Source: a virus (Duplodnaviria; Caudoviricetes). Taken from it: a stretch of 53,921 bases of DNA. The notes beneath the pieces were generated by a model. The model made no database searches. It saw nothing but the letters and a program-made list of their open reading frames with translations, and was not told the DNA's origin. Both the position numbers and the translations under genes were made by a program. Shown piece after piece: positions 4,235 to 45,506 of the stretch. The number at the start of each line of letters is the position of its first letter. Within the stretch, counting starts at the first letter, position 1. The stretch covers positions 1-53,921 of IMG/VR virus record IMGVR_UViG_3300024529_000001; one strand, 5' to 3'.

Positions 4235-4749
4235 TGAATACAAAAACTAAATTAACTCCTCTTGCAAGAAAAGAAAAAGTGCAAGAGTTAAAAAAATTTC
4301 ATGAACAAACTTTTAAAGAATTGAATGTTAGTGATCCAGTTTATATACCTAAAATGGCTCATTTTGCATCAGGACTTCAAGGTTTGCATATGGGATTTTT
4401 TGAAAGTGAAATAAATCACGGACAAGATGTATATACAGAAAAAGTAAGTAAAATAATGGAGTCAGAAGATCCTAAAAGAGTTTTATATAGATATAAATAT
4501 AATCCTCATTTTCAAGAAGAATATTCTACATCTGCTCCTGTAAGTACAGGTAATGTACGTTACTTAGTTCCAGTAGAGGAACTTGAAATTGTTGATACTT
4601 CAGAAATTGAAGATGAAGAATTTAACTTAATGAATCCTGATGAAGATTTACCACTTGATCAGTTAACAATAAGAGATGTTGCTGCATTATTGTTAAAGAA
4701 ACCCGTCAGCAAAAAAGTATGGTTAAACCAAATAATAAACAAAAAATAA
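4234..4749 (+). CDS. hypothetical protein
   Basis: 171-aa ORF coupled by TAATG overlaps to both neighbours. Confidence 0.75.
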   Translation: MNTKTKLTPLARKEKVQELKKFHEQTFKELNVSDPVYIPKMAHFASGLQGLHMGFFESEINHGQDVYTEKVSKIMESEDPKRVLYRYKYNPHFQEEYSTSAPVSTGNVRYLVPVEELEIVDTSEIEDEEFNLMNPDEDLPLDQLTIRDVAALLLKKPVSKKVWLNQIINKK

Positions 4750-5432
4750 TGGCACAAAGTATTTTAATAATAGGAGAGTCAGGATCAGGTAAATCTACAG
4801 GAGGTAGAACTTTAAAACCTGAAGAAACTTTTTGGATTAATGTTGCTAATAAACCTTTACCATTTAAAGGTTGGAAAAGCAAATATCCAAAAATTAGCAA
4901 AGAAGTAAAAGATGGTAGATTATCAACAGTAAATAGTCCAAATGGTATCATAAAAGCTATGGAATATGTAAATACTGAAAGACCAGAAATCAAAAATTTA
5001 ATTATAGATGATTGGCAATATATGTCAGCATTTGAGTTTTTTGATAGAGCTGATGAAAAAGGTTATGATAAATTTACAGATATTGGCAAATGGTTAGCTG
5101 CAACTGCAAAAAAACCTATGTCATTAAGAGATGACTTATTTATATATTTTTTAACTCATTCAGAAGAAAATACTGATGCTTTAGGTAAAAGAAAACAAAA
5201 AGCAAAAACTATTGGAAGAATGGTTGATGAAAAACTAACTTTAGAAGGTTTATTTTCTATTGTACTATATGCAAAAGTTAAAAGAAATGATGATGGAGTA
5301 TTAACATATGTATTTGAAACTAAAAATAATGGTATGAATACTTGTAAAACTCCTATGGGAATGTTTGAAAAAGAAGATATCCCAAATGATCTTGATTATG
5401 TTAAAAATAAAATTGTTGAATTCGAAAAATAA
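4749..5432 (+). CDS. AAA_24/Sak4-like P-loop ATPase (recombination)
   Basis: ILIIGESGSGKST Walker A, LIIDD Walker B, FLTH; likely start is the ATG at 4749 (TAATG overlap) rather than 4719. Confidence 0.8.
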   Translation: MAQSILIIGESGSGKSTGGRTLKPEETFWINVANKPLPFKGWKSKYPKISKEVKDGRLSTVNSPNGIIKAMEYVNTERPEIKNLIIDDWQYMSAFEFFDRADEKGYDKFTDIGKWLAATAKKPMSLRDDLFIYFLTHSEENTDALGKRKQKAKTIGRMVDEKLTLEGLFSIVLYAKVKRNDDGVLTYVFETKNNGMNTCKTPMGMFEKEDIPNDLDYVKNKIVEFEK

Positions 5433-25417: not shown

Positions 25418-28400
25418 TTAACAATTTTGATCAAATATTTCTAATATTTGGTTTATACTATTCTCTATATTATCTTCTAACATCTTATTAGTTATATTCT
25501 GACTATTATTTATATTATCAGTTATAACACTATTTTCTATAGATTTTGGATTTATGTATCCAAATTTTTTATAAAGCTGTTCACTAAGATATTGATAAGT
25601 TTTAGGTGCTTTTCTATATAAATTTTCTCCATAACCACTGCTTAAAAATAATAATTTATTTCCATTATTCATTTCTGTAACATAATAATCTATATCAGTA
25701 TCAATATTTTCTTTATTAAATTCAAAATTTTCATCATTTTGAATATCATTTAAAATAATTCCCATATTTCCATCTACATAATTTTTAGACTTAATTTTAT
25801 ATGCTTTGTTATTTAGATAAAAGTTTTCATTTTGTACTGGTAAAACAATTAACTCATTAGTATTTTCAGTTTTTTCAACTAAACTGTCTATATAAGCACC
25901 ATTTTTTCTATAAGTATTAATAAGCTGTATAGATGAATTATTTATATAAATATTATTTATATCAGTAAGTGTTTCTTTTAAATTACTTGTTTTTTCTGTC
26001 CAATTTTTAAATCTCCAAGCTTTTTGATTTTGATCTTCATATTTATTAATAAGACTTTTAGTAAATGAATCTAAATATTCTGCACTTTTCATTCTTCCAT
26101 CATAAGTTTTATCATTAAACATATCAATGACATCCTTATGAGCAGACTTTAATACTTCTAATATTTTTTCATTAGGTACACCTCTTACTAAAGATAGCGG
26201 ACTATTTATATCTTGTCCTGTTTGAAAAAACGCAAAAAATGGAAAATCTTTAAAAAACTCTGTTATCATTTTATTATCTTCTTCATTTTCTACCTTTTTT
26301 ATATTTGGATCCATTAATTCTGAAACATTTAAATAATAATTTTCAAAAGTTTCACCGTCATCTATTTTTTCGTTATACTTTAAATTAGTCACATAATTTC
26401 CTTTATCAATTACTAAATTGCTTAATATTTCGTATTGATTAATTAAATCTGGATGTTTATCTAAAATTTCTGATAACCTAACCGCATAAGTATTAGTTGA
26501 TTTAAATAGTTTTTGTTTATTATATATGTTATCTAATGTTTTTTGATTTAAATAAAAATCATAAACTTTTTTTAGACTTTCTTTTTTCTTTTCTGTTTCT
26601 TCTTCAGCAACATATTCATCATATAAATCAGTAAAATATTTATCATCATATAAATCTTCTGCTGTTGTTGAAGATTTTAATAATTCTTTTTGTAAAGCAA
26701 ATTCAAAATAATCATCAAAAGAAGTTATATATCTACCAATTTTAGGATCTTTTTTAGCATCTAAAAAATCGCTATTAAGTTTATTTGAATTTACATATAT
26801 AACATCATCTTTAATTGCTACACCTTGTTTTAGATTTTGTACATATTCAATTTTTAAATCTTTTTCAACTTTAAGGCCGCTTAATACTAATTTTCCATCA
26901 ACAATTTTAGGTAAAAAAGATTCTCTTATTTTATTTTGAAACATAAATGATACAAGATCATTTTTAAAAATATTAACAAATCTTTCTTTACCATCTACAT
27001 CATTAGTCATTCCCATCTTTTTCAATGGAACGCTTCCTGAAGCTATTTCATTAGATAAATGATTATTTATATCTGGATGATTTCTTAATTCAAATAAATT
27101 AGATAAATACTTTAATGAAAATTCTGATATATCAAATAATCCTATTATAGATGTATTAATCATTTTACTAATTAAATTTGGATCAAAATAGTTTAAATTT
27201 AATAATCCTAATTTTGCTTTTTCTCTTTCAAATGCTGCATATAATGAAGTTGATTTTTTAGTATCATAAGTTAAATTAGTTTTAATCTGTGTCATTTCAT
27301 TAGATGGAGCTCTAAGTTTTAAATAATGATAAAACGCTGCTTGCGCAACTTCTCTATTATTATCATCAATACCATTCATTGCAATATCTTTTAAAATTTC
27401 AATATTATCTATTTCTTTTTCATACTTTTCAATTTCTGTATTTGCAATCTTAAAAGAATTAAAATTAAAATTTTTCTTAGATGTATTAAATTCTTTAGGA
27501 AATTTATTTAAAGGATTTAATATAACAGCTTCTTCAGCTTTTATATTTATTAACCTAAGACCAAATGGAGATTTACTCGCCTCTTCAGATTGCTTTGTCA
27601 AGTATGCTTTTGATAATTCATAAAATACAGATTTTTTTATTCTAACTTGTTTTATATAATTTACTACATAAGGATTAGAAATAAAATAAATTGCTTTTTC
27701 TTCTGGAACACCGCTTTCAGTTAACAAAGTAAGTAAAGGAGCATTTTCAATTCCTGCATTAATATCAAATAACCAGGCTTTCTTTTCAACATCTACTGCA
27801 CCATTTATTAATTGAGAATTTGTATCAGATATTTTAGTTGTACCATTAACATCATAAATATTAGAAAGAGATATATACTCTTTTTTATTTTTTAAAAATT
27901 TATTATGTGATAGCTTTAATTTAACTTTTTGTGTAATTCTTGGTTTATTACCTGTATGATAAACAGTAAATTTTGCATCTATAAGTTGTAAATATTCAAT
28001 AAATCTTTCATCAACACCAGGCATATCACCAACAATAAAAGTTACTCCTCTTTTAGCTTGTTCTACTATTTTTTGTTTTGTATACTCACTTAAATCAGTG
28101 TACTTATATGAAGCATTACGTGCTAACATAACAACTGAAGTTTCATCATTTAAAATATTTTTTGAATCTTCATTTTCATCAACTTCTTCTAAATTTATTT
28201 TTCCTTTTATTTTATTTAAAGATGTATTACTACTACTATCTTCTTTTCTTATTTCACCAATAAAACCATTAGCATCTTTACGCATTGCAGCATCTTTAGC
28301 ATCTCCTTCAGCTGTACCTTTTCCTTTATTACTAGATCCAGGAATAGCTTTTGTATTAAAATCAATATCATTTATATATGCTCCCATTCTATTATATACA

Positions 28401-31400
28401 GAATTAAATGTATTGTTTACAGCATATAAACCTAATACAGCTTTTCCAATTGCATTAGATGCATGTTTATACAAATTATAAATTGGTTCAAATATTCTTG
28501 CAACTTCTAATACATCACTTTCACCTTCATCAGTATTTAATTGCTGATATTGAGAATATTTCTTTTTACCAGCAGGACTTTGAGCCATTTTATCAGCTAA
28601 TGCTTCTAATGATGCATTACCTAATGGTAAAACTAAATCAATAAAATTTTCTGGTTGCTCAAGTATTTCTCTTATAACTTTAATAGTGTCATTATCTATA
28701 CCTTTTGAACCAACAGAATTTAACTTTCTTTTATTTTCAGCTAATTTTTCATATAAAGGTTTTAGAATATTTTTTTCTTCTTTATTAAAAATTTCATATT
28801 CTTCTGTTAAATAAAATTGTTCTAATGCTTCTAATCTATTTTCTACCTCATTAATAGCATTTCTAGTTTCATATAGTTTATTAGTAACATATGTTCCTTT
28901 TACTTTTAATGATTGAGTATATAATTCATTCCAGGTAGTAAGTAATTGTTTTTTAAGTTTTCTATCAACTTTTGATTCTTGTCTAAAAGTTTCTTCTTTT
29001 TCTTGAAACTCAATTTGAAGCTCAGGACTTAATTTTTTCTTTCTTTCTTTCCACTTACTTTTTCTCCAATTATTTCTTTTTTCTTTTATTTGATCTTTTA
29101 TAAAATCTATTTTATTTTCTAAGTCTTCTTTATTTTCAGTTACATCTAAATTTTTAATTAATTCTGTTTTACCATTAATAACTGTTAAGTTAGGCATATA
29201 TATAGAAAGCTTATCAACATCAAAATCTGAACCTGATTTAGCAACCATTTCAGAAGGAGGTATAATTATATTACCAGCTGATTCAGGCAAAAATTCTCCA
29301 ACTTCCATAAATTCCATAGAGTTAAGACCTTGAACTGGTATACGTACACCAACCATAGTAATCATTCTTCTATTGTCATCTTTATTTAACCAATCTTCAT
29401 TTTTTATTACCTTATTCAATCTTTCTCTAGTACGAATTTTATCACCTTTTAAATCTGTTAAATTAAGTAATTTTGTAAAATCACCTTGTAATGCAATTTT
29501 AATTTTCATTGCAGAGGTCAGACCATTATTAGCATTTTCTTGATATGAAGCTAAACCATCAGTACCATATGTTTGTTTATCTAATTCTGTTGCGTTTGTA
29601 AACTGTGAACTTTCAAAACCAGAATTAGAAACTAATACAAGCATTTCTCCATTTAGTTTTGACTTAATTAATTTATTATTAACTAATGCCATTAACATTT
29701 TTTCTATTTGTGGAGCATTTAGAGATAAAGATAAATCAGTAACTATTTCACCATTATAATCAACATTAATAAAATCAAGCTCATGTGCAGCAAGATCTCT
29801 AGCTTTTAATTGCCTAGCTACCATTTCAACTAAACCTGAAACATCTTCAGATCCTAAAGTATATCCTGATTCTCTTAATATTTCTTTTTTAGTACTTTCA
29901 ATTTTTTGTTCTAATAAATTTTCATATGTAGTAGCAAAAGCTTTCATTTTTTTAGAAATAGCTCTTCCTTTTTCAAATATATTTAACTCTACTAATTTTC
30001 TAAATTGAGTTGAAAATGTAGCCTTTCTTTTAAATTCTGGATGAATATCAATTTGATCTTTTAAGTATTCTAAATAAATTGGATTAGAAATAAATTTACT
30101 TTCTTCATTAAATTCTCTACTTTCTGTAGGTTTTATATCTCCTTTATATAATAATGAATTTTCACCATTTTCAGTTATTGTAGAAATCTTACTTCCTGAA
30201 CCATATGTACCATAAGTAATATTTTCTCTTGTCATTTTATTATGTAACTTTTCCAAGTTAGTTCCTTCAATTACATTTGGTATTAAAGGCATTAATGAAT
30301 ATTTATGAAAACCTGTTAAAGGTACACTATTAGTAGTAGCTAAAGGTCCAAAATATTGATATTTTCTAACTGGAAAAAATTCTGATAAATTGTATTTAGA
30401 TACATCTTCTTTATTAATAATTTTTTGGAATAACTCTTCTTGTTTTTTTGACCATTTACCTTGTAATTTACCAAGTATTCTATAAGCATCAAATGTAAGA
30501 TATCCTTGACCATCACCTTCTTCCATTTTTAGATATGGTTTTATTGCACTTTGAACTGCATTATTTATCATATCATCTTTTACAGTTTTAGATAATTTAA
30601 GATTTTTATATCTTTCTATATAATATTTTCTAAATGCTTTTTCATAATTTTCAGCATATGCAGATTCTATTTCATTTTCTTTTAAAACTATAGTATTAAG
30701 TTTACCATTAAAATATAAAAGAACATTAGACATTAAACCAAGTGATTGTGCGTATGTTGTATTACGTGTTGGATTTGAAGTATTAGGAGCAGTAAATACA
30801 TTATTAATCCAATTATACATTGCTTGATCAGTTCTAAAGATTTGACCTGCAGAAGCCATCGCTGCATTTCTTTTATGAAAATCTTCTTTTAGCATATTAT
30901 ATTGAGAAGGATCTCCATAAAATATTGTCATTAAATCAAATTTATTTAACATTTGATTTGCAACATATGAGCTTACTATTATTTCTGCCATTTGTTCTTT
31001 TGAAAGCTTTTCATCAGTATATTCTCCTAATTCTTTAGATATTTTATTTTCTAAAGACTCTGATATAAAAGGCATTTCATTAAATTTCTGATATGTCTGT
31101 TCATAAACATTATTTAAATAATCATTTAAATCAAGAGTTAACCAATCTCTTAATGACCAATTTAAATCATAGTCATCATCAAGAAATTCTTCAACTGTAT
31201 CATATTCTTTATCTAATACATCCATATCCAATTGATCTTGAATATTATCATAAAGCTCTTCACTTATCATTCCTTTAAAAGTATACAACTCTGTACCTTT
31301 AGCTTTTATTTTATTTGTACCAACTGTATATCCTAAAACTTCAGGTTGACCACCTTTTTTTATTATTTCTATTTTTTTAATATCAGCTATTATATGATCT

Positions 31401-34400
31401 ATAATTTTGTTAATAGTTTTTACTGTTCCATCAGTTGTAACAACTTCACTAAAATTCTCACCATCATAAAACTTTATTGTTTTCTCATAATCTTTAGAAA
31501 ACTCTACACTGTCAATATATACATGTTTATTTTTTCCAGAATTTTTAACTCTTGATGGCGAAGCAGCTAGTGATGTAGATTTTGAAGCATGTCTTGGAAA
31601 TTCAGGATTACCTCTTATTATAGTATCATGTATATCTTGAATTAATTTATCATTATCTGTTAAATCAGCTGTTACATTTGACTTATCTAAAATTTCATCT
31701 TTTACTTTAGCAACTCCAGATAAATTTGTTAATTTAAGTACTATTTCTTTTTTAGTTGTTTTATCAATCAGTTTTGGACCTTCTCCATTTCCAATATCAA
31801 ATATTGAATTTAATATACCATTTGATAATACAGAAGGATTATTTCTAAAATCTAAGAAAGACATATAAGGTTTAGAAACTAATTCAGAATAAGTTTTAGA
31901 TTTATTAATTGCATTTACAATTCTATTTACAGTCCCATTATAAGTATGTTCATTTTGTAAATCATTGTTTGCGTTATTTACAGAAAAATTAGAATATTTA
32001 TCAGAAAATTTAGATTCAGCATTTAATATTTCAGTTACTCTAGCAGTTTCACTTGATAAGTCTTTAATTATATCAAATATTAAACCTTTTCTTTTTTTAT
32101 CTATTAATGCAGTATATATGTATTTTATTGATTCTTTATATTTTTCTTTATTATTAATCTCATTAATTAATAAGTTATTATTATCTAAATTAAAACCAAT
32201 ATTTTTTAAAAATGTAAAAGGATTTTTTTGAGCAGCATAATAATCAGGATAAGTTCTTCTAAACTTAGTATTTTCTCCAGTTTTTAAAACAGGTACTTTT
32301 CCTCTTCCTTTTATTTTTATTTCTGTTATATACTTATTTGGATCTCTTTTTATTGATTTAAAAAATGAAGAAAAATTAGCTCTTATTTTTTGTAAATTAC
32401 CATGTGCAGCACCAGAAGTTAATTCATATTCAAGAATAGATTCATAATCTTTCTTCCCAGATTCACTTTTTATTTCTTTTTTAGTATTTAATTTAACAGT
32501 TATCTGCTCTAATGGTACTCTTGATTTATTAAACACTTGCCAAAAATCTGTCCATATGTCTACTTCAGAATCTGCTTTAGCTAAATTAGGATCACCTAAT
32601 TTTTTTAATAATTCATTTATTGTACCTGCTACATTTGCATCTGCTTTAGAAGCTTTTTTAAGAGCATCATACATTTCTTCTGGATGTTCTATTGACTCTA
32701 AAGTTTTTAATAATCTACTCCAAGTTTTATTAAATTCAGAAAGTTCATGAATATCAATTTGATTAAGTTTTGGTGAACCATCTTCATTATATTTATGTAA
32801 ACTTTTTATTAAAAATAAAATTTGTTTTGACGCACTTTGAATTGTTGAAAGCTTATTACTTGACCCTTCAATTACTTGTTGCCATTGTTGATTTTCTGTG
32901 TTAACACTTATTAAGTCTTTTACTGCTTCTGCATCTAAAGAATCAGTTAAACTTCCTGTATATTTAGAGTTATTTCTATGATATGCTGCTACACCTTTTG
33001 TAGATCCTAAATCACTTATATCACCCCATTGAGATATTGCATAATCTAATAATTCTTTTTTATATTCTGTATCTGCAGTTTCTCTAAGTTCTGTAAACTT
33101 ATATAAAGCAAATTGATATGCATGTTTATAGAAAAATTCAGGAGCGGTATGCCATGCAGATGACCATTTAGTATTTTTATCTTGATCAATCCTCATATTA
33201 ATAAATGTAGAAATAAATGAATCTATAGATTTCATTAATACTCTTGACTTTTGAATGTCTAAATTTTCTACATTTTCATTTAAAGACTCTATTCCGTAAT
33301 TTAGTTTTCCCCATTTAACATTGTTAATAGAATAATTTCTCTGTTCAAAATCCCCATTATAAAGCTCTTTTTGTAATTTTCTTACTGAATTTAATATTTC
33401 TGGCCTTACAATTGCACTTTCATAAGAAGTATTAGTAAATAAAGATTTTAGAAAGTTAAATATTCTACTAAATATATTATTTCTTTTAGGAGAATCTTTC
33501 TTAGTAATTTTTCCTCCTGAAAGGCCATACGCTCTATAATCTTCTGCTAAATACTCTTCTATTTCTTTATCATTAGCTTCAGAAAACTTTTTAGTTACTC
33601 CTTTATATGTTACAAAAGTCCCAGTATCTTTTTTTACTTCATTATATAATTCAGATTTTTCTTCTAGAGTTAAAAATAATTGGGTGAAACCATGCCATGA
33701 TTCATGGTAAAGATCTGTGTAATTAAAACCATCATGTAATGTTATACCATCTACTGTAAACTGTGCATATATATTAGAGTTTACAATATTAGATATTATT
33801 TCATATGGTAAATACTTAGACATAGGATTTGAATCATACCATTGTTTAGCTCTTTTTTGTTGTCTTTTTGTTTCGGCTCTTTGAGTTTCTCCTGCAGGTT
33901 TTGTTCTATATAATTCTTCAGAAAGATCATCAGTAGAATTAAATCCTGTATTATTCTTTTTAGGTTCTTTTTTTATTTTTACCTCACTAGTTTGTGCTGG
34001 TTGAGTAGATTCTAATTCCTGTTGAGCTAATTTTAAACCTTCAAGAAAAGCTTGGTCAATTAACTGATTAGTATTATGCGTGAAATTTTCATATTGCATT
34101 AACTTTTTAGCAGGTTCTGAATTAGGATTTTGTTTAAATGATTCAACTACAAGTTGCTTCATTAAACCTAAACTATCTGCTGCTTTCATTTGTGCAACAG
34201 TAGCTTTGCCTCTTATTTTTCTTCCGTATCCAGGTGTAGTTTTAAGATTATTATATTTATTATAAGTTGTTTGATCAAAAGTACCAGACTTATTAGATTG
34301 ATAAGCATGTTCTACACTACCATATTCTCTACCTTCCCAAGTAAATTTTCTTGGGGCTAAATTAGATAATACTTTGGTAGATTTTTCAGATTCAGCTTGT

Positions 34401-37400
34401 CCCCAATAAACATTTATAGTTCCTTTTCTTTCAACCTCACTAGTTTGTGGTGTTGGTTGAGCTTTTAATGCAGTAGTAAGAATATTTTTAATATTTGTTT
34501 TTTCTTGAGCGGTAAGTTTACTACCTCTATTACCTGCGACATTAAGAGTTTTAATATTATTATCAGCTAAGAATTTTCTTAATTGTTCCGCTGTAGGGTT
34601 TAGAATAAAAGGCTTACTATGTTTTTTAGCATATCTTTCTGTAGCAATTTTTCCTGCACTATCTGCACTAGTAGCAAAATAAGCTGTTCCATCTGAATTT
34701 AAAGTATTCATTTCTGTTCTAGCAGTATAAGCATCAGTTTTACCTTCTGCATATTTATCCTGTTCTTCTGCTGTGATTTCTTTGACACCATATTTTTCTG
34801 CTAAAGAAGGGTCTTTTTTACCAGCTTCTGTTAAAAATCCTACAGGAGCTGTTCCACCAGTTTTCATTCCTAATGCTTTTCCAACTTCTAAACCAATCTG
34901 ATCTACACCTGTTTGCCCTCCAGAAATAACTTTAGTAACTTGTTGTGTTGGTTTTAAATTAGGTATTTTTTCTAATTTTTTTAATTTATATGGTTTTTCA
35001 ATTCCAGAAAATTCAGATGGATAAGTTGTATATTCACCTCTTACAGATGCAGCTTTAATAGGAATTATTAATAATTCAGATGCACTAAGACCATCTGTGT
35101 TATTTAAGAGAATGTTATATGTTGATAATTGTTTTGAAAACTTAGAAGCATCACTTTCACTACCTTCAAAACCACTGTCAAAGAACTTACTACCAGCTCT
35201 TTTGGTTTTCATATCCCAAATCTTTATTTCTCCAGTCTTCTTATTTATAGTTAAAAGATCTAATGTTCCTGCTATACCTAACTCATCATTATAAACAAGC
35301 ATTCCTTCTGAATAAACTTTTTCATCTTCTGAAATATTTTCTTCAGTCCAATAATCAATTGCATCAATAACATCTTTATACGCTGATCTTTTAATTGCGT
35401 TCTTTTTAAACTCACTATTAGCAATAAAGTTTTTATATAATTTGGGACCATCTTCAGAAAAATAATCTCTAAAAATTTCATCAAAAGTAGTTCCAATAAC
35501 TGCTCCTGTTTTAATTCTTAATATTGCATCTTCTTCAGTGTTATTATTTTTATCTATAGGATTATCTAATAAATCTAAAAGATAACTAGACTCAAGCCTG
35601 TTTCTATCAATATTTATAGTTCCATCATCATTAAACACAAATGCATCTTTTTTTTCTACTTCTCTTAAATTATCAAGAGTGTCAGATGATTCAGATATTA
35701 CATCCGTTACTCTATTATAAGTACGTATTACATTTCTATTTTCATCAAGTTGAATATATGTTTTTTTATCAGGCGATAATATAAAATTTTCTGATCTAGC
35801 TACAATCTGATCTAATACAACTATACTATTAGCTACAGAAGAATTTTTAAGACTTGTATTACCTTTTATTATTCTTTTATTTCTTTTAAGATTATTTAAA
35901 TCAGATACAGAAAAAGTGTAATAACCTCCAAGTAATGGTACTTGACCTTCAGCATTAACTACAAAAGGAGATGAAAAGTTTTCTTTTACAAAATCATTAT
36001 AATCTTTTTCTTGTGTTTCAACTTTATTATTTTCTATAGAAATTATATCATTTATTTTAGTTCCTAATGATCGTGAATCAAGATTTAATTGTAAAACAAA
36101 GCTTTTTTCTATTTTCTTTTTATTTTTATCTGTTATAGAATATTTATAACCTTCTATTTTTTTCTCTATATCTTTTTTTAATTGCTTCTTAGTATATACA
36201 TCCCCTTTTTTATTTTTTACAATTAATTCTTTTGGATTTTTTTTGTCATAACTATATTTATAATCACTTATATACGTATATTGTTTAATTAATTTAATTC
36301 TTTCTAAAGCCTTTATATCCAAGTCATCATTTAAAAGAAGTTCTTTTATAAAATCTGCGTACTTAGTATCCTTTAGAAGTAAATAATCTATTGGTATATT
36401 AGGTGTAAAAGGATCAGAAACTTTTATAACAGCCTTTCCTTTATTCTCTCCTACTTTTTCTATTTCAATATCAAAAGGTAAAGTTTCATTAAAATTTATT
36501 TCACTTAATGGAACCTTTTCTTCATAGTTAACAACTGCATGACCTGGATTTACAGTTGTAATTTCAGTAATAACTTTATTATTCTTTTTATCACTTTGAA
36601 TATATTTTATTGCATCATCTACAGCTTTCCAATCTGCATCAAATCTTTTTTTAACTTCTTTAACTGATTCTCCAGTTTTTTTAGCTACATCTTGAAAAGA
36701 TGCTAAACCTCTATAAAAATTTTCTTTATTTCCAAAAGTTCTTCTAACATTATCATATGAAGCAATTCCTTCTTCAGCAGATACCACATTATAATTACCA
36801 GAGTCATCTTCCTTAAAATATAATATATTACCATTATTATCTGTAATAACAGCAGATATACCATTTTGATAATCTACTTTTCTCTGAGCTAATGTTTGTT
36901 TCTTTTGAACTACATCTTTTTTTAATTTTTCATCCCATCTATAATCAATATGTTCTTTATCAGTAATTCTTCTTAAATGATCTGGTCTTAAATCTTCTTT
37001 TCTCAACATTGTTTGAGACATAAGAGTTATTTTAAAACCTGTATGTCCTCCAAAAGTAAGATCAGACATTGATAAATTATCTGATTTATCTAATGCTAAT
37101 GCAAATGCTTTTTTTAAATTTTTATAAAATGTATTTTCTTTATCTAAGATTCCTTGTTGAGATGATAGTGCAGCATACAAGTGAGGTCTAGTTATTGTTG
37201 ACGCAACATCTTGCGGTTTAGCATCAAAAATAACATTTGTTACTCTACTTTTTTCATCTATTGAATTTCCTGCATTATTTCTTTTTAACTTCTTTTTTTG
37301 TTTACGAGATAATGTAGAAGGATCAATTTTAAAATATTTAAAAAACTTGTTAAAATCACTAAATTCTTCTACTAATTTTCCTAAATTATCTAAACTAAAA

Positions 37401-37657
37401 CCTTTACCTATTTGTTGCAACAATAATTCTTGATTTCCCGATATAACTTGCAACATTATACTTGGTGTTAATTGCATAAGAGATAATGCTGTTAAAGGTA
37501 CTACACCGTCTTCTATTGAAGCATTATAATAAGTATCAATAATATTTTCAACATTAATTAACTCATCTTTTTGAAAAGATTGTTTAGCAAAAGCTGAAGC
37601 AACACCTAAAACTGCTATTTGCTGTTCTTCATTTAATATTACACATTTAACAGACAT
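25418..37657 (-). CDS. virion-packaged single-chain (two-barrel) RNA polymerase with accessory domains (4079 aa)
   Basis: RIPVQGLNSM...GSDFDVDKL (DFDVD at 29213-29227), KRNAA, DGQGY, HKYSLMPL; also PD-(D/E)xK, SLOG, NADAR and HESWH motifs. Confidence 0.9.
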   Translation of the reverse strand: MSVKCVILNEEQQIAVLGVASAFAKQSFQKDELINVENIIDTYYNASIEDGVVPLTALSLMQLTPSIMLQVISGNQELLLQQIGKGFSLDNLGKLVEEFSDFNKFFKYFKIDPSTLSRKQKKKLKRNNAGNSIDEKSRVTNVIFDAKPQDVASTITRPHLYAALSSQQGILDKENTFYKNLKKAFALALDKSDNLSMSDLTFGGHTGFKITLMSQTMLRKEDLRPDHLRRITDKEHIDYRWDEKLKKDVVQKKQTLAQRKVDYQNGISAVITDNNGNILYFKEDDSGNYNVVSAEEGIASYDNVRRTFGNKENFYRGLASFQDVAKKTGESVKEVKKRFDADWKAVDDAIKYIQSDKKNNKVITEITTVNPGHAVVNYEEKVPLSEINFNETLPFDIEIEKVGENKGKAVIKVSDPFTPNIPIDYLLLKDTKYADFIKELLLNDDLDIKALERIKLIKQYTYISDYKYSYDKKNPKELIVKNKKGDVYTKKQLKKDIEKKIEGYKYSITDKNKKKIEKSFVLQLNLDSRSLGTKINDIISIENNKVETQEKDYNDFVKENFSSPFVVNAEGQVPLLGGYYTFSVSDLNNLKRNKRIIKGNTSLKNSSVANSIVVLDQIVARSENFILSPDKKTYIQLDENRNVIRTYNRVTDVISESSDTLDNLREVEKKDAFVFNDDGTINIDRNRLESSYLLDLLDNPIDKNNNTEEDAILRIKTGAVIGTTFDEIFRDYFSEDGPKLYKNFIANSEFKKNAIKRSAYKDVIDAIDYWTEENISEDEKVYSEGMLVYNDELGIAGTLDLLTINKKTGEIKIWDMKTKRAGSKFFDSGFEGSESDASKFSKQLSTYNILLNNTDGLSASELLIIPIKAASVRGEYTTYPSEFSGIEKPYKLKKLEKIPNLKPTQQVTKVISGGQTGVDQIGLEVGKALGMKTGGTAPVGFLTEAGKKDPSLAEKYGVKEITAEEQDKYAEGKTDAYTARTEMNTLNSDGTAYFATSADSAGKIATERYAKKHSKPFILNPTAEQLRKFLADNNIKTLNVAGNRGSKLTAQEKTNIKNILTTALKAQPTPQTSEVERKGTINVYWGQAESEKSTKVLSNLAPRKFTWEGREYGSVEHAYQSNKSGTFDQTTYNKYNNLKTTPGYGRKIRGKATVAQMKAADSLGLMKQLVVESFKQNPNSEPAKKLMQYENFTHNTNQLIDQAFLEGLKLAQQELESTQPAQTSEVKIKKEPKKNNTGFNSTDDLSEELYRTKPAGETQRAETKRQQKRAKQWYDSNPMSKYLPYEIISNIVNSNIYAQFTVDGITLHDGFNYTDLYHESWHGFTQLFLTLEEKSELYNEVKKDTGTFVTYKGVTKKFSEANDKEIEEYLAEDYRAYGLSGGKITKKDSPKRNNIFSRIFNFLKSLFTNTSYESAIVRPEILNSVRKLQKELYNGDFEQRNYSINNVKWGKLNYGIESLNENVENLDIQKSRVLMKSIDSFISTFINMRIDQDKNTKWSSAWHTAPEFFYKHAYQFALYKFTELRETADTEYKKELLDYAISQWGDISDLGSTKGVAAYHRNNSKYTGSLTDSLDAEAVKDLISVNTENQQWQQVIEGSSNKLSTIQSASKQILFLIKSLHKYNEDGSPKLNQIDIHELSEFNKTWSRLLKTLESIEHPEEMYDALKKASKADANVAGTINELLKKLGDPNLAKADSEVDIWTDFWQVFNKSRVPLEQITVKLNTKKEIKSESGKKDYESILEYELTSGAAHGNLQKIRANFSSFFKSIKRDPNKYITEIKIKGRGKVPVLKTGENTKFRRTYPDYYAAQKNPFTFLKNIGFNLDNNNLLINEINNKEKYKESIKYIYTALIDKKRKGLIFDIIKDLSSETARVTEILNAESKFSDKYSNFSVNNANNDLQNEHTYNGTVNRIVNAINKSKTYSELVSKPYMSFLDFRNNPSVLSNGILNSIFDIGNGEGPKLIDKTTKKEIVLKLTNLSGVAKVKDEILDKSNVTADLTDNDKLIQDIHDTIIRGNPEFPRHASKSTSLAASPSRVKNSGKNKHVYIDSVEFSKDYEKTIKFYDGENFSEVVTTDGTVKTINKIIDHIIADIKKIEIIKKGGQPEVLGYTVGTNKIKAKGTELYTFKGMISEELYDNIQDQLDMDVLDKEYDTVEEFLDDDYDLNWSLRDWLTLDLNDYLNNVYEQTYQKFNEMPFISESLENKISKELGEYTDEKLSKEQMAEIIVSSYVANQMLNKFDLMTIFYGDPSQYNMLKEDFHKRNAAMASAGQIFRTDQAMYNWINNVFTAPNTSNPTRNTTYAQSLGLMSNVLLYFNGKLNTIVLKENEIESAYAENYEKAFRKYYIERYKNLKLSKTVKDDMINNAVQSAIKPYLKMEEGDGQGYLTFDAYRILGKLQGKWSKKQEELFQKIINKEDVSKYNLSEFFPVRKYQYFGPLATTNSVPLTGFHKYSLMPLIPNVIEGTNLEKLHNKMTRENITYGTYGSGSKISTITENGENSLLYKGDIKPTESREFNEESKFISNPIYLEYLKDQIDIHPEFKRKATFSTQFRKLVELNIFEKGRAISKKMKAFATTYENLLEQKIESTKKEILRESGYTLGSEDVSGLVEMVARQLKARDLAAHELDFINVDYNGEIVTDLSLSLNAPQIEKMLMALVNNKLIKSKLNGEMLVLVSNSGFESSQFTNATELDKQTYGTDGLASYQENANNGLTSAMKIKIALQGDFTKLLNLTDLKGDKIRTRERLNKVIKNEDWLNKDDNRRMITMVGVRIPVQGLNSMEFMEVGEFLPESAGNIIIPPSEMVAKSGSDFDVDKLSIYMPNLTVINGKTELIKNLDVTENKEDLENKIDFIKDQIKEKRNNWRKSKWKERKKKLSPELQIEFQEKEETFRQESKVDRKLKKQLLTTWNELYTQSLKVKGTYVTNKLYETRNAINEVENRLEALEQFYLTEEYEIFNKEEKNILKPLYEKLAENKRKLNSVGSKGIDNDTIKVIREILEQPENFIDLVLPLGNASLEALADKMAQSPAGKKKYSQYQQLNTDEGESDVLEVARIFEPIYNLYKHASNAIGKAVLGLYAVNNTFNSVYNRMGAYINDIDFNTKAIPGSSNKGKGTAEGDAKDAAMRKDANGFIGEIRKEDSSSNTSLNKIKGKINLEEVDENEDSKNILNDETSVVMLARNASYKYTDLSEYTKQKIVEQAKRGVTFIVGDMPGVDERFIEYLQLIDAKFTVYHTGNKPRITQKVKLKLSHNKFLKNKKEYISLSNIYDVNGTTKISDTNSQLINGAVDVEKKAWLFDINAGIENAPLLTLLTESGVPEEKAIYFISNPYVVNYIKQVRIKKSVFYELSKAYLTKQSEEASKSPFGLRLINIKAEEAVILNPLNKFPKEFNTSKKNFNFNSFKIANTEIEKYEKEIDNIEILKDIAMNGIDDNNREVAQAAFYHYLKLRAPSNEMTQIKTNLTYDTKKSTSLYAAFEREKAKLGLLNLNYFDPNLISKMINTSIIGLFDISEFSLKYLSNLFELRNHPDINNHLSNEIASGSVPLKKMGMTNDVDGKERFVNIFKNDLVSFMFQNKIRESFLPKIVDGKLVLSGLKVEKDLKIEYVQNLKQGVAIKDDVIYVNSNKLNSDFLDAKKDPKIGRYITSFDDYFEFALQKELLKSSTTAEDLYDDKYFTDLYDEYVAEEETEKKKESLKKVYDFYLNQKTLDNIYNKQKLFKSTNTYAVRLSEILDKHPDLINQYEILSNLVIDKGNYVTNLKYNEKIDDGETFENYYLNVSELMDPNIKKVENEEDNKMITEFFKDFPFFAFFQTGQDINSPLSLVRGVPNEKILEVLKSAHKDVIDMFNDKTYDGRMKSAEYLDSFTKSLINKYEDQNQKAWRFKNWTEKTSNLKETLTDINNIYINNSSIQLINTYRKNGAYIDSLVEKTENTNELIVLPVQNENFYLNNKAYKIKSKNYVDGNMGIILNDIQNDENFEFNKENIDTDIDYYVTEMNNGNKLLFLSSGYGENLYRKAPKTYQYLSEQLYKKFGYINPKSIENSVITDNINNSQNITNKMLEDNIENSINQILEIFDQNC
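33981..34005. repeat. direct repeat copy 1 (encodes the TQPAQTSEV linker)
   Basis: ACCTCACTAGTTTGTG-c-TGGTTGAG; the 16-nt core is identical to 34434-34449. Confidence 0.8.
34434..34461. repeat. direct repeat copy 2 (encodes the AQPTPQTSEV linker)
   Basis: ACCTCACTAGTTTGTG-gtgt-TGGTTGAG; with copy 1 it brackets the NADAR-like domain in frame. Confidence 0.8.
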
Positions 37658-37674: not shown

Positions 37675-40600
37675 TTAACAATTATTTTTAGTTTTATTAC
37701 TTGAATTTTTCATTGCAGCAAGCGGATCTATTGCATCATCAAATCCTTTTTTGATTTGGTCATTAGAAATTTCTATATTATTTTGATTTTCATTTGCTGC
37801 ACCAGCTTCCCCATCAGTTGGATTTACATCATCATCTTCAATAGGAGCAGTATCATTAATAAGTTTAAAACTTTTATCTTTCATAATTTCTTCTGTAAAT
37901 TCATATTCTTCTAAATCAGCAATGTTAACAGATTTATATAATATTTCATCATTTGTTTTATTCATAATATAATATTTTTTTCTTTTATATTTAAATACCT
38001 GACCTACTTCAATATCTTCAATAGGCACATTAGATAATACTTCATTTAAATACTCATTTAAGATTTCATCAATATCATTTATTTCATCATTATATAATTT
38101 TATTTCATCTTTACCTTTTCCAATTTTATCATTATTTGATGTAAATTCATTTGTCCATCTTTCAAATTCTTGATCTGCATTTGATCCAGCTTTTTTAAGT
38201 CTATCTTTTATTTCATTTATATAATTTGAAATTATACTTTGTCTTTCATGTTCATCTATATCTGGAGTTGTTTTCATTCTTTCAAATGAATATACATTCA
38301 TTTTACCTTGACCTTCAAAATAATTTTTTAAAGTTTGAGGCATATAAACAGTCAATAAATCTGTACCTTCTTGATATTCATATTTTTCAGTATTAACTTT
38401 ATCTGCTTTTGTAGGATAATTTTTTAATATACCTCTTAATGTATTTAATTTATTTTCTCTACCTAAAACTTCATCAAAACTAATGTAACCAAAATATTTT
38501 AATTTAAGACTATTTTTAGCATCTATAAAGGTTTGTCCTTTATCTTTCACTTCGTCTAAATTTTTTATTTTATTGTTCACACCTTTAAAAAAGTATCCTG
38601 ACCTTGCATCTGGATCTAATTCATTTATTATTTCATCATTTAATGTAATAGTTAAATCTGTAGGTTGAGATTCAGATGATAATTGTGCTAGTTTATTTTC
38701 TAATCCTTCTATTTTTGCATTTTGAGCTTGAATTATAGGACTACTACTTTCATAGTCATCTAACAACTCTTCTAATTGTTTGTAAGCATTTTTTATGGCT
38801 TCTTCTAATTTTTCTATTTCAGTAAGCTTTTTCTTTTTAGTTTTTATTTTTGGGTCACCTTTTTTATTTTTAAAAGTATTTATAATTCCTGTTATAATTT
38901 TTTTATTCTTTTTGTCTTTGTACCAATTTTGAAATTCACCACCTTCTAAATTGTCTATATCAATATTATTTGTTTCTGCAAACTTTAAAAATCTGTTTTG
39001 TAACTTTTCAAATAATTCTTTTGGAAGATCTTCAATTGCAGTATCTACAGATAATTCTTTTTCATCCTCTTTTCCTTTCCCTTTTTCCTCCCCTTCTTCT
39101 TCTTCTACTACTACATCCGTTGTCACATTTATACTAGGTAATTTAGATTCTTTTAAGAATTCATCAACTACCTTTTGTATTTCCGCTAAATCTTTTTCAT
39201 CAGTTACTTCCTGTCCTGCATTTTCTTTATCATCAAACTTATAATAAAAAGGTATTTTTTGATTCATACCACTATTGCCTTTAGTTATTACTGGTAACCA
39301 AATTGGCTGTATCCAATAACCCGCATCCCATAATTTATTTGCAAAAATATTTCCGTTTAAAAGATTTCTATATTTATCATATGCATATCTTAAATCTTCT
39401 TCTTTGTTACTAAAATTTCTTTGAAATTCTTTAAAGGCATTTTGTCTAAACTTTTCAAATCCTCCTGGATTCAAAAGTATATTAACTGCATTTTCTAGAT
39501 TTAAAGCATCTGACTCAAGCTCATGATGATCAAGTATAAGTTCAAATGATTCTCTTATTTTATCACTTGTTATATATTCTCCATTTGATCTTGCCAAAAC
39601 TTTTAAGTAATCTTCATATAAATCAAAAAGATCATTAACTACCCTTTCAGTATTTTTTGCATTTTGAACGCTTAAATAAGAAATATTATTTTTTGATACT
39701 GTAACAGTTTTACCATCTGACCTTTTAACTTTTACTTTACCATCATCTAGTTCTTCTATAATAGTTCCTTTAATTTTTTGTTTTTTACCATTTAAAGTTC
39801 CTTCATATTGAATCTCAGTTTCATCAGCTGGTTTATCTTTTTTCTTTTTCTTAAATTCTTCTTTTATTTCTGATAGTTTAGTATTGAATGTCTCTAATTT
39901 TTCTCTTTTATCCTTAAGATTTTTAAGTTGTTTTTTCTGAGACTTGGTCATTGATTCATTTTGCTCTCTTGAAAATATATCAGAATTTAATATATCCAAC
40001 TCTTGATTCATACTAATTTCATTTAATAGTATAGTAAAATCAGTTGATGATACTTTTGACAAAGGTTTATTTGAACTAATAGTATTTGCTATATTAGTCA
40101 TCCTTTCTAATGTCTTATCAAAACTATATTGCATAAATACAAGTTTATCTTTTGCGTCTTCAAATGATATATAATTTTCTTCTGCTTGCTCTCTTTCTAT
40201 AGTATCTGGTTTAAATGCATTTGGATTAAATGGATTTACTTCTTGATCTGCTATTGTTTTTCTTTTCTTTATATTTTCAGCATTATCTAAAACACTTTGT
40301 AACTTAGCTCTTAAATCAGTATTTTCTAATTCTTCAAGAGTCATAGAAGAACTAAAAGCTTCTTGTAAAGATTGATCATCTAATTCTTGAAATTGTTTTA
40401 TTCTGTCTACAAAACCATCATATAAACCTAATTTTAATACACTAGATACATGAGTATATTGTTGAGTATTAACAAGGTCCCTATATGCTTTAACATCTCC
40501 ACTTTTTATTGCATCAATTTTAGCTTGTTCAATTCTTGTTTGATTTACTACATTATCTTGTAAGGCGTTTGCATATTTAAGAGGACTACTAAAAACTTCA

Positions 40601-42387
40601 TTTAGCATTTTTATATTTGCTTCTCTTACATCTTCTTCTTTTTTTTGATTTGCTTTATATTTAGCAGCTCTACTTCCTGTTCTAGCATAAACATCTAGAG
40701 CAGCGGATTTAGCTCCTCCAGTAAACCCTACTAATCCACCCATTGTAAATCCAGACATAAACACTCCAAAGCCTTCCATACTTTTCATAGTGTTCATTCC
40801 TTGTATCATAGTATTATAATAACCTCCTCTTTCTAATTCATCTTTAACATAGTAATCAGTTAATCCTGCAGCAATTCCTTCTTGATATAATTCTTGAACA
40901 CCTTCTGCCCAGTTTCTTGAAGTGTATTTTCCTATATTTCTTGCAATATTTTTAGGTTTATAAAATCTTTTTAACCAAGGTTTTGCAGTAAAATTTTCAA
41001 TTGTTGCTGAACCACCTTTTGCTACTTTTGAAACATCAGCAATCTGACCTCCAGGAAGCTTAGATTTAAATCTTCTAAAAGGTTGCATTATACCATCAAA
41101 TACAATTTGGTTAGTTCCATATATTAATGGAAAATTCCAAAGTAAAGTTTCATATCCAGCTTTCTTAGAATCATGTGTTATTGATTTTACTTGTTCTTCT
41201 GAAATAGGACCTTCTTGTTTATCAAGTTCTTCATATCTTTTTTTAGAAACTTCTAGTTCAACTAAACCTGCTTCAAGTTTAGACTCAGCTAATGCCATAT
41301 TAACATTACGCACATCTCTAACCATAGCTCCAAACATAGTGTAGCCATCAATAAAATCAACAGCATTTTCAGTTGATTTAACTTTGTTTGCTGCACTTTT
41401 TGCAGCTAATAATCTTCCTGTACCTATACTACCTTCAAGTGGATTTATAATTTTTCCAGTGTTTTTAACTGTATTCCATGCTACTCTAGCTGCACCAAGT
41501 TCATTAATTTTTTTCATGTCACTAATGAGTCCTCCTCCTACTCTTCCAAACTTACCAATTGAACTCATTCTTGCACTTGCCTGTATACCTTGTTTAAATC
41601 TAAATGCCCCATGTGCCATTTTTGCTAAAAAAGGAGTAGCTCCAGCACCACCTGCAGGAGCAGTACCTATACCAGCTAAAGCAGCACCAAAAACTAATGC
41701 AGCTTCTTCTGCCATAAATGCTCCAATCATACCAAAGGTCATTCCTGAATTTATAACAGTATTATTTGCCCAAGAAGCAATACCTTCTCTAGATGAACTA
41801 CCAATAGCCATTGCTCTTTCCATTCCTCTTGCACCTTCAAGATCAGAACCTGTTATGTCACCAGAAAATATATCACCATAACTTGTAAAATAATTTTTAA
41901 AACCAACTCCAAAAACATTCCAAAATTGATTATTACCTCTTTGCCAATCTTTCCATCCAGAACTATGATTATTATATAAAGTTTCATTATCTCTAAAAGG
42001 AGAAAATCCTAATTTTTGAAATAAACCAGAATCTGTATGACTTGAATATCTTTCAAAGTTGTAACCATCATAATCTGCATTGTAAGTACCAACAGCACCT
42101 GCTATATTATCATCTGTAGAATTACTTATAGCATTTGAAATATTATTATTAAAACGAGCCACTGGATCATCAACTACTTGACGTGGAGGATTATTTAAAT
42201 TACCAGCTTCAGTATTTGAAATTGCTATATTCTTATATGGACCATTATCCCACGGAGATTCAGGACTTAGTAAATCAGGAAAATTTGGAGTTAAATCAGG
42301 TTGATTAACATCCATATTCAGACCTTGATTAGAAGGATTAAATAAAGAACTATTATCTAGTTCTGGAATATCTTGTTCTTCATCCAT
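37675..42387 (-). CDS. large virion cargo/ejection protein with Gly/Ala-rich membrane segments (1570 aa)
   Basis: FGMIGAFMAEEAALVFGAALAGIGTAPAGGAG, EGVQELYQ, FMSGFTMGGLVG; coiled coils; immediately upstream of the RNAP. Confidence 0.7.
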   Translation of the reverse strand: MDEEQDIPELDNSSLFNPSNQGLNMDVNQPDLTPNFPDLLSPESPWDNGPYKNIAISNTEAGNLNNPPRQVVDDPVARFNNNISNAISNSTDDNIAGAVGTYNADYDGYNFERYSSHTDSGLFQKLGFSPFRDNETLYNNHSSGWKDWQRGNNQFWNVFGVGFKNYFTSYGDIFSGDITGSDLEGARGMERAMAIGSSSREGIASWANNTVINSGMTFGMIGAFMAEEAALVFGAALAGIGTAPAGGAGATPFLAKMAHGAFRFKQGIQASARMSSIGKFGRVGGGLISDMKKINELGAARVAWNTVKNTGKIINPLEGSIGTGRLLAAKSAANKVKSTENAVDFIDGYTMFGAMVRDVRNVNMALAESKLEAGLVELEVSKKRYEELDKQEGPISEEQVKSITHDSKKAGYETLLWNFPLIYGTNQIVFDGIMQPFRRFKSKLPGGQIADVSKVAKGGSATIENFTAKPWLKRFYKPKNIARNIGKYTSRNWAEGVQELYQEGIAAGLTDYYVKDELERGGYYNTMIQGMNTMKSMEGFGVFMSGFTMGGLVGFTGGAKSAALDVYARTGSRAAKYKANQKKEEDVREANIKMLNEVFSSPLKYANALQDNVVNQTRIEQAKIDAIKSGDVKAYRDLVNTQQYTHVSSVLKLGLYDGFVDRIKQFQELDDQSLQEAFSSSMTLEELENTDLRAKLQSVLDNAENIKKRKTIADQEVNPFNPNAFKPDTIEREQAEENYISFEDAKDKLVFMQYSFDKTLERMTNIANTISSNKPLSKVSSTDFTILLNEISMNQELDILNSDIFSREQNESMTKSQKKQLKNLKDKREKLETFNTKLSEIKEEFKKKKKDKPADETEIQYEGTLNGKKQKIKGTIIEELDDGKVKVKRSDGKTVTVSKNNISYLSVQNAKNTERVVNDLFDLYEDYLKVLARSNGEYITSDKIRESFELILDHHELESDALNLENAVNILLNPGGFEKFRQNAFKEFQRNFSNKEEDLRYAYDKYRNLLNGNIFANKLWDAGYWIQPIWLPVITKGNSGMNQKIPFYYKFDDKENAGQEVTDEKDLAEIQKVVDEFLKESKLPSINVTTDVVVEEEEGEEKGKGKEDEKELSVDTAIEDLPKELFEKLQNRFLKFAETNNIDIDNLEGGEFQNWYKDKKNKKIITGIINTFKNKKGDPKIKTKKKKLTEIEKLEEAIKNAYKQLEELLDDYESSSPIIQAQNAKIEGLENKLAQLSSESQPTDLTITLNDEIINELDPDARSGYFFKGVNNKIKNLDEVKDKGQTFIDAKNSLKLKYFGYISFDEVLGRENKLNTLRGILKNYPTKADKVNTEKYEYQEGTDLLTVYMPQTLKNYFEGQGKMNVYSFERMKTTPDIDEHERQSIISNYINEIKDRLKKAGSNADQEFERWTNEFTSNNDKIGKGKDEIKLYNDEINDIDEILNEYLNEVLSNVPIEDIEVGQVFKYKRKKYYIMNKTNDEILYKSVNIADLEEYEFTEEIMKDKSFKLINDTAPIEDDDVNPTDGEAGAANENQNNIEISNDQIKKGFDDAIDPLAAMKNSSNKTKNNC

Positions 42388-42392
42388 ATGAA

Positions 42393-45485: not shown

Positions 45486-45488
45486 GAT

Positions 45489-45502: not shown

Positions 45503-45506
45503 TTAA

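Follow-up and report, generated by a model that had tools for sequence, protein, structure and literature searches.

A probable two-slot array of linker-bounded SLOG and NADAR cassettes in a giant crAss-type polymerase fusion protein

Polyvalent proteins are giant phage proteins in which many unrelated enzyme domains are joined, and which are predicted to be delivered together with the DNA (Iyer, Burroughs, Anand, de Souza, Aravind 2017, PMC5512222; PMC9503650). A protein of comparable build is encoded in the virus record IMGVR_UViG_3300024529_000001, of which positions 1 to 53,921 were analysed as a whole (hereafter the window). It is a 4079-amino acid (aa) open reading frame (ORF), whose C-terminal half is a crAss-type RNA polymerase and whose N-terminal half carries, between copies of a short in-frame linker, a SLOG domain followed by a NADAR domain. 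We regard it as probable that these form a two-slot, in-frame cassette array in a crAss-type polymerase fusion, bounded by the linker, reshuffled, and serving as a counter-defence kit delivered in the virion. The crAss-type polymerase carrier sets the locus apart from the polyvalent proteins described so far ('crAss' occurs 0 times in the accessible part of PMC9503650, and the main text of PMC5512222 contains none of the words 'NADAR', 'YpsA', 'AlkB' and 'linker'). Its modules lie in defined slots with a DNA-conserved in-frame linker at which the junctions fall, whereas the cassettes in the main text of PMC5512222 are separate small ORFs beside a kinase locus. The locus shares with the polyvalent proteins the pairing of NADAR with SLOG, the presence of ART-PolyVal (weak matches) and of Kinase-PolyVal and ART-PolyVal in relatives, and an architecture that varies among relatives, with five variants at the site of the window.

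In polymorphic toxins, junction motifs such as VENN of CdiA and the pre-toxin motifs of Rhs and MuF proteins are short peptides with conserved DNA that mark the border between a constant carrier and a variable module, and the recombination by which these modules are swapped is thought to be guided by them. Only this junction-motif principle is shared by the window, which has several tandem slots, the motif on both sides of each module, modules that are internal and not C-terminal tips, and a cargo of repair or ADP-ribose-type enzymes instead of anti-competitor toxins. None of the polymorphic-toxin hallmarks (C-terminal tip, immunity genes, orphan cassettes) was seen in the window. In the modular theory of Susskind and Botstein for lambdoid phages, short conserved DNA at module borders was reportedly proposed to target homologous recombination; those linkers lie between genes, whereas that of the window is itself translated as part of an ORF and leaves domain-sized units in frame.

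The single domains also have described counterparts. T4 gp30.3/AdfN and other phage NADARs share with the NADAR of the window a YbiA-like fold, the Glu and Lys of the SxEHxYQxxK helix and, as far as sequence and model suggest, probably a histidine at the last strand (H1194 in the window); as far as they are described in the accessible parts of PMC11125620, PMC11825919 and PMC11543638, those proteins are free-standing and expressed after infection, whereas the NADAR of the window is a cassette in a probably packaged polymerase protein. The same SLOG, 57% identical, is found in gp055 of IAS virus, a 'molybdenum carrier' (NC_049978.1) whose gene immediately precedes the polymerase gene of this crAss-like phage and overlaps with it. 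It differs in being a separate, unfused protein of 837 aa, with no NADAR after the SLOG (tblastn) and no QTSEV linker visible in its translation. The locus thus stands apart from polyvalent proteins and polymorphic toxins in three ways, namely the crAss-type polymerase carrier, the multi-slot internal array and the DNA-fixed translated linker. No description of a crAss polymerase carrier with such a linker was found in the literature covered, which did not include the supplementary architecture tables of PMC5512222 and PMC9503650.

The two cassettes and their linkers

The cassette region of the ORF spans aa 902-1226, and both of its domains are bounded by linker copies. In the direction of translation, it consists of the following features.

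34937..34954, minus strand: left linker KPTQQV, aa 902-907, 9 nucleotides (nt) shorter than the canonical linker (repeat family D1, 77% identity)
34502..34930, minus strand: cassette 1, circularly permuted YpsA-type (cpYpsA) SLOG, aa 910-1052 (Pfam PF12694)
34433..34459, minus strand: middle linker QPTPQTSEV, aa 1067-1075, holding the repeat copy 34434-34449 (from the repeat and from loose ends of X12 contigs at 34432 and 34465)
34004..34432, minus strand: cassette 2, phage-type (His-variant) NADAR, aa 1076-1218, with E1116, K1123 and H1194 conserved (profile, model, Foldseek)
33980..34003, minus strand: right linker QPAQTSEV, aa 1219-1226, holding the repeat copy 33981-33996 (from the repeat)

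An earlier reading made from the letters of the window alone (hereafter the sequence-only reading) had claimed that the NADAR is bracketed in frame by direct repeats, and this was found to be so. The 16-nt sequence ACCTCACTAGTTTGTG is present in exactly two copies in the 53.9-kb record, at 33981-33996 and 34434-34449, and after each copy, 1 and 4 bases on, stands TGGTTGAG; on the coding strand the two repeats, which bracket the NADAR, read QPAQTSEV and QPTPQTSEV, respectively. A third site, at 1123, needs 3 mismatches, and 0/100 shuffles reached three matches with at most 3 mismatches. The weaker linker that had been noticed before the SLOG is the canonical linker minus nine bases: KPTQQV corresponds to CCA ACA CAA CAA ACT AGT GAG GTT without ACTAGTGAG. 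The linker consensus is (K/Q)PTQQTSEV in peptide and CCAACACAACAAACTAGTGAGGT in DNA.

The first cassette, read from the letters as a SLOG/MoCo-carrier-like domain, was confirmed as such by a match to PF12694 (cpYpsA) with an E value of 9.7e-25 and 87.4 bits (cut-off 26.2) over model positions 1-135 of 145, and by a match to the PDB entry 3imk (E 1.8e-11). Binding or processing of nucleotides or ADP-ribose derivatives is predicted for SLOG domains in the accessible text of PMC9503650. A free-standing protein of 298 aa (P0211) was observed in which a NADAR-like domain is followed by a cpYpsA SLOG, the reverse of the order in the window; this fusion suggests that the two domains may work on related substrates.

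For the second cassette, the PDB sequences ranked first and second by a 22-sequence profile of the family were YbiA (2b3w, E 0.0037) and the NADAR 8bau (E 0.017). An AlphaFold model of the domain (pLDDT 95.7, pTM 0.90) was compared with the PDB by Foldseek, and the top two matches were again 2b3w (prob 1.00, TMq 0.61) and 8bau (prob 0.94), the other matches listed having a prob of at most 0.12. Among the 50 BFVD matches listed, 21 bear the name NADAR and two more are large crAss-like phage proteins, one DUF7831 domain-containing and the other uncharacterized. With these matches and the predicted model, aa 1076-1218 can be firmly assigned to the NADAR fold. The NADAR-like identity proposed by the sequence-only reading is therefore upheld by model, Foldseek, profile and BFVD, although not by the Pfam score for PF08719, which stays below the cut-off (see below); PF08010 (gp30.3) gave only E 0.11 in Pfam.

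One Glu and one Lys are conserved throughout the NADAR superfamily, and the catalytic position at the last strand is occupied by Glu in YbiA, by Asp in DarT1-linked NADARs (BC4488) and by His in phage NADARs, as described in the accessible parts of PMC11543638 and PMC11125620. In the SVEHAYQSNK helix of the window, which aligns with SEHYFQAQK of YbiA, K1123 is the same in all 22 sequences and E1116 is conserved in at least 90% of them. The putative counterpart of the published histidine is H1194, which comes directly after the last model strand and is conserved in at least 90% of the family. The absence of the usual C-terminal DxxWG motif, which had been raised as a caveat, fits these His-variant phage NADARs (PMC11543638, PMC11125620). 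According to the parts of the reports available, phage NADARs act on ADP-ribosylated guanine in DNA (PMC11125620) and the T4 NADAR counters DarTG1 (PMC11825919). A representative library contained 320 relatives of the NADAR module at E <= 1e-3. Their identity reaches 86%, and besides small free-standing proteins they include modules placed anywhere along proteins as long as 7428 aa. In Bacillus phage AgentSmith (L002), gene 46 encodes a 238-aa 'toprim-like' protein with a C-terminal copy of the NADAR subtype of the window (40% identical); its N-terminal domain is DUF4326-like by eye, and the toprim-like annotation looks wrong.

Cassette exchange among relatives and linker DNA in other phages

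One important question is whether gain and loss of domains among relatives falls at the linker. With aa 1236-1900, the constant stretch to the right of the cassette site, as query, 98 giant relatives were found, and the content of the site differs among four of these and one metagenome locus, whose backbones are near-identical. The following domain sets were found.

Window: SLOG and NADAR
P0005 / L004: ART-PolyVal-like module (E 9.4e-4, below cut-off) and AlkB-type oxygenase (35.2 bits, cut-off 31.2)
P0006: NADAR only
P0007: DGKHR module (ParB-like by eye) and ART-PolyVal-like module
L135: two modules without family and SLOG

Five different domain sets are therefore present at one site in backbones that are 92-98% identical, and the changes begin and end in the linker. 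The DNA of L004 is 96.4% identical to the window to the left of the site and 98.6% to the right, with 46% within the cassette; the corresponding flanks of L135 are 94.6% and 97.5% identical, and at the protein level P0005-P0007 are 92-93% identical to the window on the left and 96-98% on the right. All junctions in the three DNA records (10/10) contain parts of CCA ACA CAA ACT AGT GAG GTT. The modules are not tied to one slot, the ART-like module being in slot 1 in P0005 and in slot 2 in P0007 (92% identical). The NADAR of P0006 is 96.5% identical to that of the window, while in DNA the SLOGs of L135 and the window share only 80.6% identity, against 97.5% in the flank; the two SLOGs are therefore of different origin. 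Neither a fixed architecture among the relatives nor a fold other than NADAR and SLOG for the two domains was found.

No Pfam family was obtained for modules E and F of L135 or for the first module of P0008, and the ParB identity of the first module of P0007 was rejected, as it rested on DGKHR by eye and Pfam gave nothing. Positions 2701-3408 of L135 hold two linker-bounded modules of ~130 and ~90 aa without Pfam family; they are candidate virion-delivered effectors. The corresponding site is also used in distant relatives: it is empty in P0009, carries an AlkB-like (by eye) and an ART-like module in P0010, and has an STSEV linker and another module in P0013. Precomputed domains among the 98 relatives comprised NADAR (10), AlkB-type (6), cpYpsA (3), DUF7831 (14), helicase (15), Kinase-PolyVal (1), ART-PolyVal (1) and RNase H (1).

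Excision variants were looked for, as had been proposed, in contigs of four public runs over positions 32500-36500; these are assembled contigs, not raw reads, and speak for presence only, so that stretches without contig cover in X9, X12 and X14 carry no weight. In one 1291-nt contig of X16, a match to 33854-34446 passes directly into one to 34942-35635. The 495 nt missing between 34446 and 34942 are exactly the SLOG and one linker copy; the joint, bridged with at least 255 nt on either side, reads KPTQQTSEV and then continues into the NADAR. Contigs of X12 diverge from the window at 33941 and on both borders of the middle linker (34432 and 34465), and contigs of X14 at 34955 and 34987. As judged from the sequences compared, what changes as one piece, by gain, loss or replacement, is a module together with a single copy of the linker.

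The repeat was also searched for beyond this lineage, in IMG/VR. With the linker 14-mer CAAACTAGTGAGGT, 83/126 occurrences lay in frame 0 of an open stretch of at least 300 aa, against 39/119 for the reversed control; in open stretches of at least 1000 aa the figures for frame 0, which is the QTSEV frame, were 55/126 and 10/119. More than one copy was present at 9 loci for the linker 14-mer and at 0 for the control. Of 30 matches to PTQQT(S)EV obtained by codon-degenerate scanning, 26 are PTQQTSEV in open frames of at least 338 aa. All 26 share identical 18 nt, followed by GAG for Glu in 20 and by GAA in 6, and they lie in ~17 distinct contexts (counted by eye), mostly very divergent giant ORFs. 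With the codon usage of the giant gene, the joint probability of the six linker codons is 0.018, and GAG makes up 10% of the Glu codons.

A homologue of the polymerase core, 22-65% identical, was present within the fetched stretch at 26/125 linker loci. The modules are far better conserved than their carriers: the SLOG of L039 is 86% identical and its core 42%, and the NADAR of L073 is 79% identical and its polymerase core 23%. Among 89 linker sites, one upstream context was followed by 3 different downstream modules, and one downstream module was preceded by 4 different upstream contexts. L021, L029 and L077 correspond to a locus of the L013/L121 type with an additional 513-nt unit between two linker copies, and this unit is absent in seven loci with the same flanks. 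The unit (L021 10446-10972) has a weak match to DUF7831 (E 7.6e-4). Its MYLFTDNAERTS motif resembles, by eye, the N-terminal part of IAS virus gp055.

The polymerase carrier and its genome setting

The carrier and the other features that bear on the exchange are given below.

25418..37657, minus strand: giant ORF P0001, 4079 aa, with a PD-(D/E)XK-like domain, the cassette site and an HExxH region in the N-terminal half and a crAss-type RNA polymerase in the C-terminal half
29213..29227, minus strand: DFDVD, aligned with DFDID of phi14:2 gp66 (BLASTP alignment)
35057..35383, minus strand: PD-(D/E)XK nuclease-like domain, aa 759-867, constant left flank of the cassette site (Pfam PF12705 E 0.002, 18.6 bits, below the cut-off of 22)
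33692..33706, minus strand: HESWH (HExxH) motif, constant right flank, in the right-anchor region (by sequence; no Pfam family)
4719..5432, plus strand: AAA_24 (Sak4-type) protein, candidate phage recombinase (PF13479 E 6.9e-11)
10131-11165, plus strand: separate PD-(D/E)XK nuclease (E 2.5e-5)

By BLASTP, the C-terminal 2193 aa of the ORF matched gp66 from Cellulophaga phage phi14:2 across 633 columns (E 8e-25), GSDFDVDK of the window being aligned with GSDFDIDK of gp66; DFDVD/DFDID is presumably the metal-binding motif of the polymerase. A tblastn search with the polymerase core matched 80 crAss-like or Flavobacterium phage records. PHROGs gave no family for the giant ORF or for six large neighbouring ORFs. 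A fusion of gp66 with phi14:2 gp67 was ruled out as the origin of the N-terminal half, because the best E value of the N-terminal 1886 aa against gp67 was 1.4. One ORF of 4079 aa contains several unrelated domains (PD-(D/E)XK-like, SLOG, NADAR, HExxH and polymerase). The sequence-only reading had placed the cassettes in the virion RNA polymerase; they do lie in the same ORF as a gp66-like polymerase, but in its N-terminal, non-polymerase half and not in the core. The label 'virion' for this polymerase comes from its homology to phi14:2 gp66, annotated in its record as a catalytic RNA polymerase subunit on the basis of tandem mass spectrometry (MS/MS) of virions. Polymerase-associated proteins of crAss phages are virion cargo, as described for the cargo proteins of crAss001 in the accessible part of PMC10172136. 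From this and from the gp66 annotation, the carrier is likely to be in the virion and to be ejected with the DNA.

The two flanks of the cassette site are unequally kept, the right anchor being found in 98/98 giant relatives and the left anchor, with the PD-(D/E)XK-like domain, in 8/98. Just past the polymerase core, aa 3150-3260 (27878-28210, minus strand; VVMLARN...GDMPGVD...FTVYHTG) look like a second SLOG-type motif and are kept in P0005-P0007; this identity was rejected, since Pfam gave only a weak SPOUT match (E 0.037). Downstream, the ORF is followed by a gene that is itself a giant ORF. Around the polymerase gene, at 17942-25414 and 37675-53755, minus strand, are six more large ORFs of 705-2490 aa, and this block is very divergent from catalogued phage proteins.

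The record of the window is 53.9 kb long, has 26% G+C and is ~45% complete, and its sequence is present in seawater and marine-sediment runs. CTAG is under-represented in the window as a whole (82 sites, 128 expected from shuffles). A replication module on the plus strand encodes, according to Pfam, a DnaB-type helicase, the AAA_24 protein, the PD-(D/E)XK nuclease, a family B polymerase, a DUF932 protein and a spore-photoproduct-lyase-like protein. We take the AAA_24 protein to be a Sak4-type recombinase candidate that could act on short homologies. Together with the PD-(D/E)XK nuclease it may form a recombination pair of the phage, with a possible link to cassette exchange.

Weighing of the explanations

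In the explanation that we favour, each slot would hold one autonomous enzyme-type domain, in the window the cpYpsA SLOG and then the phage-type NADAR. Short-homology crossovers between linker copies, possible within one genome or between co-infecting relatives, would shift whole domains with the frame intact, and the AAA_24/Sak4-type protein and the PD-(D/E)XK nuclease of the phage may aid them. Crossover between linker copies is the simplest reading and the most likely mechanism, since it would explain why a module and one linker change together, why the frame is kept, why the linker variants are mosaic and why divergent carriers have the same linker DNA letter for letter. Of the recombination-based plug-in array that had been suggested from the letters, the cassette swaps and their linker junctions were observed, and recombination is what we infer from them. 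Since the polymerase of phi14:2 virions is a homologue of the carrier, the modules would travel in the particle and reach the cell together with the DNA. Once inside, the NADAR could remove ADP-ribose from phage DNA, like T4 AdfN against DarT1, or cleave ADP-ribose-derived molecules, and the SLOG could bind or process ADP-ribose-type nucleotides. A counter-defence role is suggested by the activity of the T4 NADAR against DarTG1 (PMC11825919), by the role predicted for SLOG and NADAR against ADP-ribose-derived signals (PMC9503650) and by the fast turnover of the modules. The accessible text of PMC9503650 describes frequent combinations of SLOG, Macro and NADAR domains in DNA viruses and frequent packaging of NADAR, Macro, Nudix and ART proteins in virions.

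Several observations weigh against this explanation. The raw 14-mer was found at 116 IMG/VR loci and the reversed control at no fewer than 119, so that its abundance is not above chance and was rejected as evidence; only frame, ORF size and multiplicity separate the two. Several of the 26 PTQQTSEV linkers are in near-duplicate contigs, and recent descent and selection on the DNA cannot be separated here as causes of the linker identity. An xTSEV-type linker is present in only 6/98 giant relatives and is thus limited to a lineage, and the right-hand boundary in P0006 and P0007 is SAEKNI(N/K)V, which is not the canonical linker. A QTSEV-type linker stands upstream of the NADAR module in only 3/78 full-length contexts and downstream in 0/78. 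Since 75/78 contexts are without it, the linker as a requirement for the mobility of the NADAR module was rejected, and modules also move without it. The NADAR domain scores 21.5 bits against PF08719 (E 3.1e-4), where the cut-off is 35.1. A phmmer search of the PDB sequences with the polymerase core gave nothing at E <= 0.01. Contigs, finally, tend to break at repeats anyway.

This last point leads to the question of whether the different architectures are chimeras that arose at the short repeat during assembly, given that they stem from assembled metagenomes and that breaks in Logan contigs occur at the linkers. Such an origin is hardly credible. Usual assembly k-mers are longer than the repeat, which has only 16-23 nt. 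The five architectures, all in frame, come from separate collections (IMG/VR, ENA, Logan, JGI and a WLWF record), the alternative modules occur nowhere else in the 53.9-kb record, and the SLOG-less joint is spanned by one contig. A dedicated site-specific enzyme, such as a recombinase or a homing or nicking endonuclease that would read the 23-nt linker in the manner of an integron or shufflon, is very improbable too, even though the core is long, letter-identical across divergent phages and contains the palindrome ACTAGT. This hexamer was rejected as a special or avoided site, as it is not unusual in the window (9 sites, 11.2 expected). No integrase, Rci-type or HNH family was found by Pfam in the 10 ORFs of the replication module or in the giant ORF, although a record that is 45% complete may lack the gene. 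The junctions are mosaic (KPTQQ-V, VTPTSEV, QPTPQTSEV, STQTSKV), which fits crossover points that vary better than a fixed cut. More weight is due to a protein-level role of the linker, which we rank second and still consider unlikely. The linker would then be kept as a flexible spacer or as a protease site releasing the modules after ejection, the swaps would result from illegitimate recombination with in-frame selection, and the same DNA would reflect recent descent. The peptide is S/T/Q/P-rich, as is typical of interdomain linkers, other lineages flank the same NADAR module with TQPSTSVKP- or AELAALE-like motifs, an HExxH motif is present in the same protein, and with GAA instead of GAG in 6/26 linkers the DNA is not absolutely fixed. 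Against this stand the 18 identical nt in 26/26 linkers, where codon usage predicts ~0.02 for each, and the rare GAG in 20/26. The carriers are 22-44% identical in the polymerase core, so that synonymous sites should have diverged long ago, and gain or loss concerns exactly one module and one linker copy, as a repeat crossover predicts. In the accessible text of PMC10172136, 'cleav' and 'proteol' occur 0 times, so no cleavage of the crAss001 cargo is reported there.

The function of the cassettes was weighed separately from their movement. Instead of countering defence, the domains might serve the nucleic-acid housekeeping of the phage, by removing NAD caps or ADP-ribose by-products in RNA repair and by repairing alkylated template for the incoming polymerase. 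PMC9503650 (accessible part) ties NADAR to settings of RNA repair and counts AlkB among the repair enzymes, the modules are carried on a polymerase that must transcribe freshly injected DNA, and the window also encodes the spore-photoproduct-lyase-like repair enzyme. We give housekeeping a minor share of the probability, given that modules come and go fast in phages that are 92-98% identical, which is arms-race-like, that the alternative modules include an ART-like domain, and that an anti-DarTG1 role has been shown for a phage NADAR (PMC11825919).

A bolder version of the favoured explanation, that of a reshuffled array with linker crossovers, is held only tentatively, at somewhat less than an even chance. 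The 23-nt linker would in that case be a dedicated translated recombination signal that makes giant virion proteins of crAss-like phages, marine and other, 'domain integrons', with a pool of counter-defence modules shared across backbones that are 20-40% identical and with the linker DNA under selection. NADAR, SLOG, ART, AlkB, ParB-like, DUF7831 and family-less modules could plug in frame into any slot that bears the linker, probably by means of the phages' own single-strand-annealing recombinases.

If the linker guides exchange, it would be a sequence handle with which one could catalogue the enzymes brought in by uncultured phages during the first seconds of infection; a search with its 18-23 nt, followed by reading between the copies, would build this catalogue, many of whose modules have no known family. 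It would also explain the turnover of the kit between near-identical strains. The array would be an in-frame, multi-slot counterpart to the junction motifs of polymorphic toxins. It makes testable the ideas that short translated repeats are selected as recombination sites and that polymerase proteins of the crAss type may carry working counter-defence enzymes into the cell.

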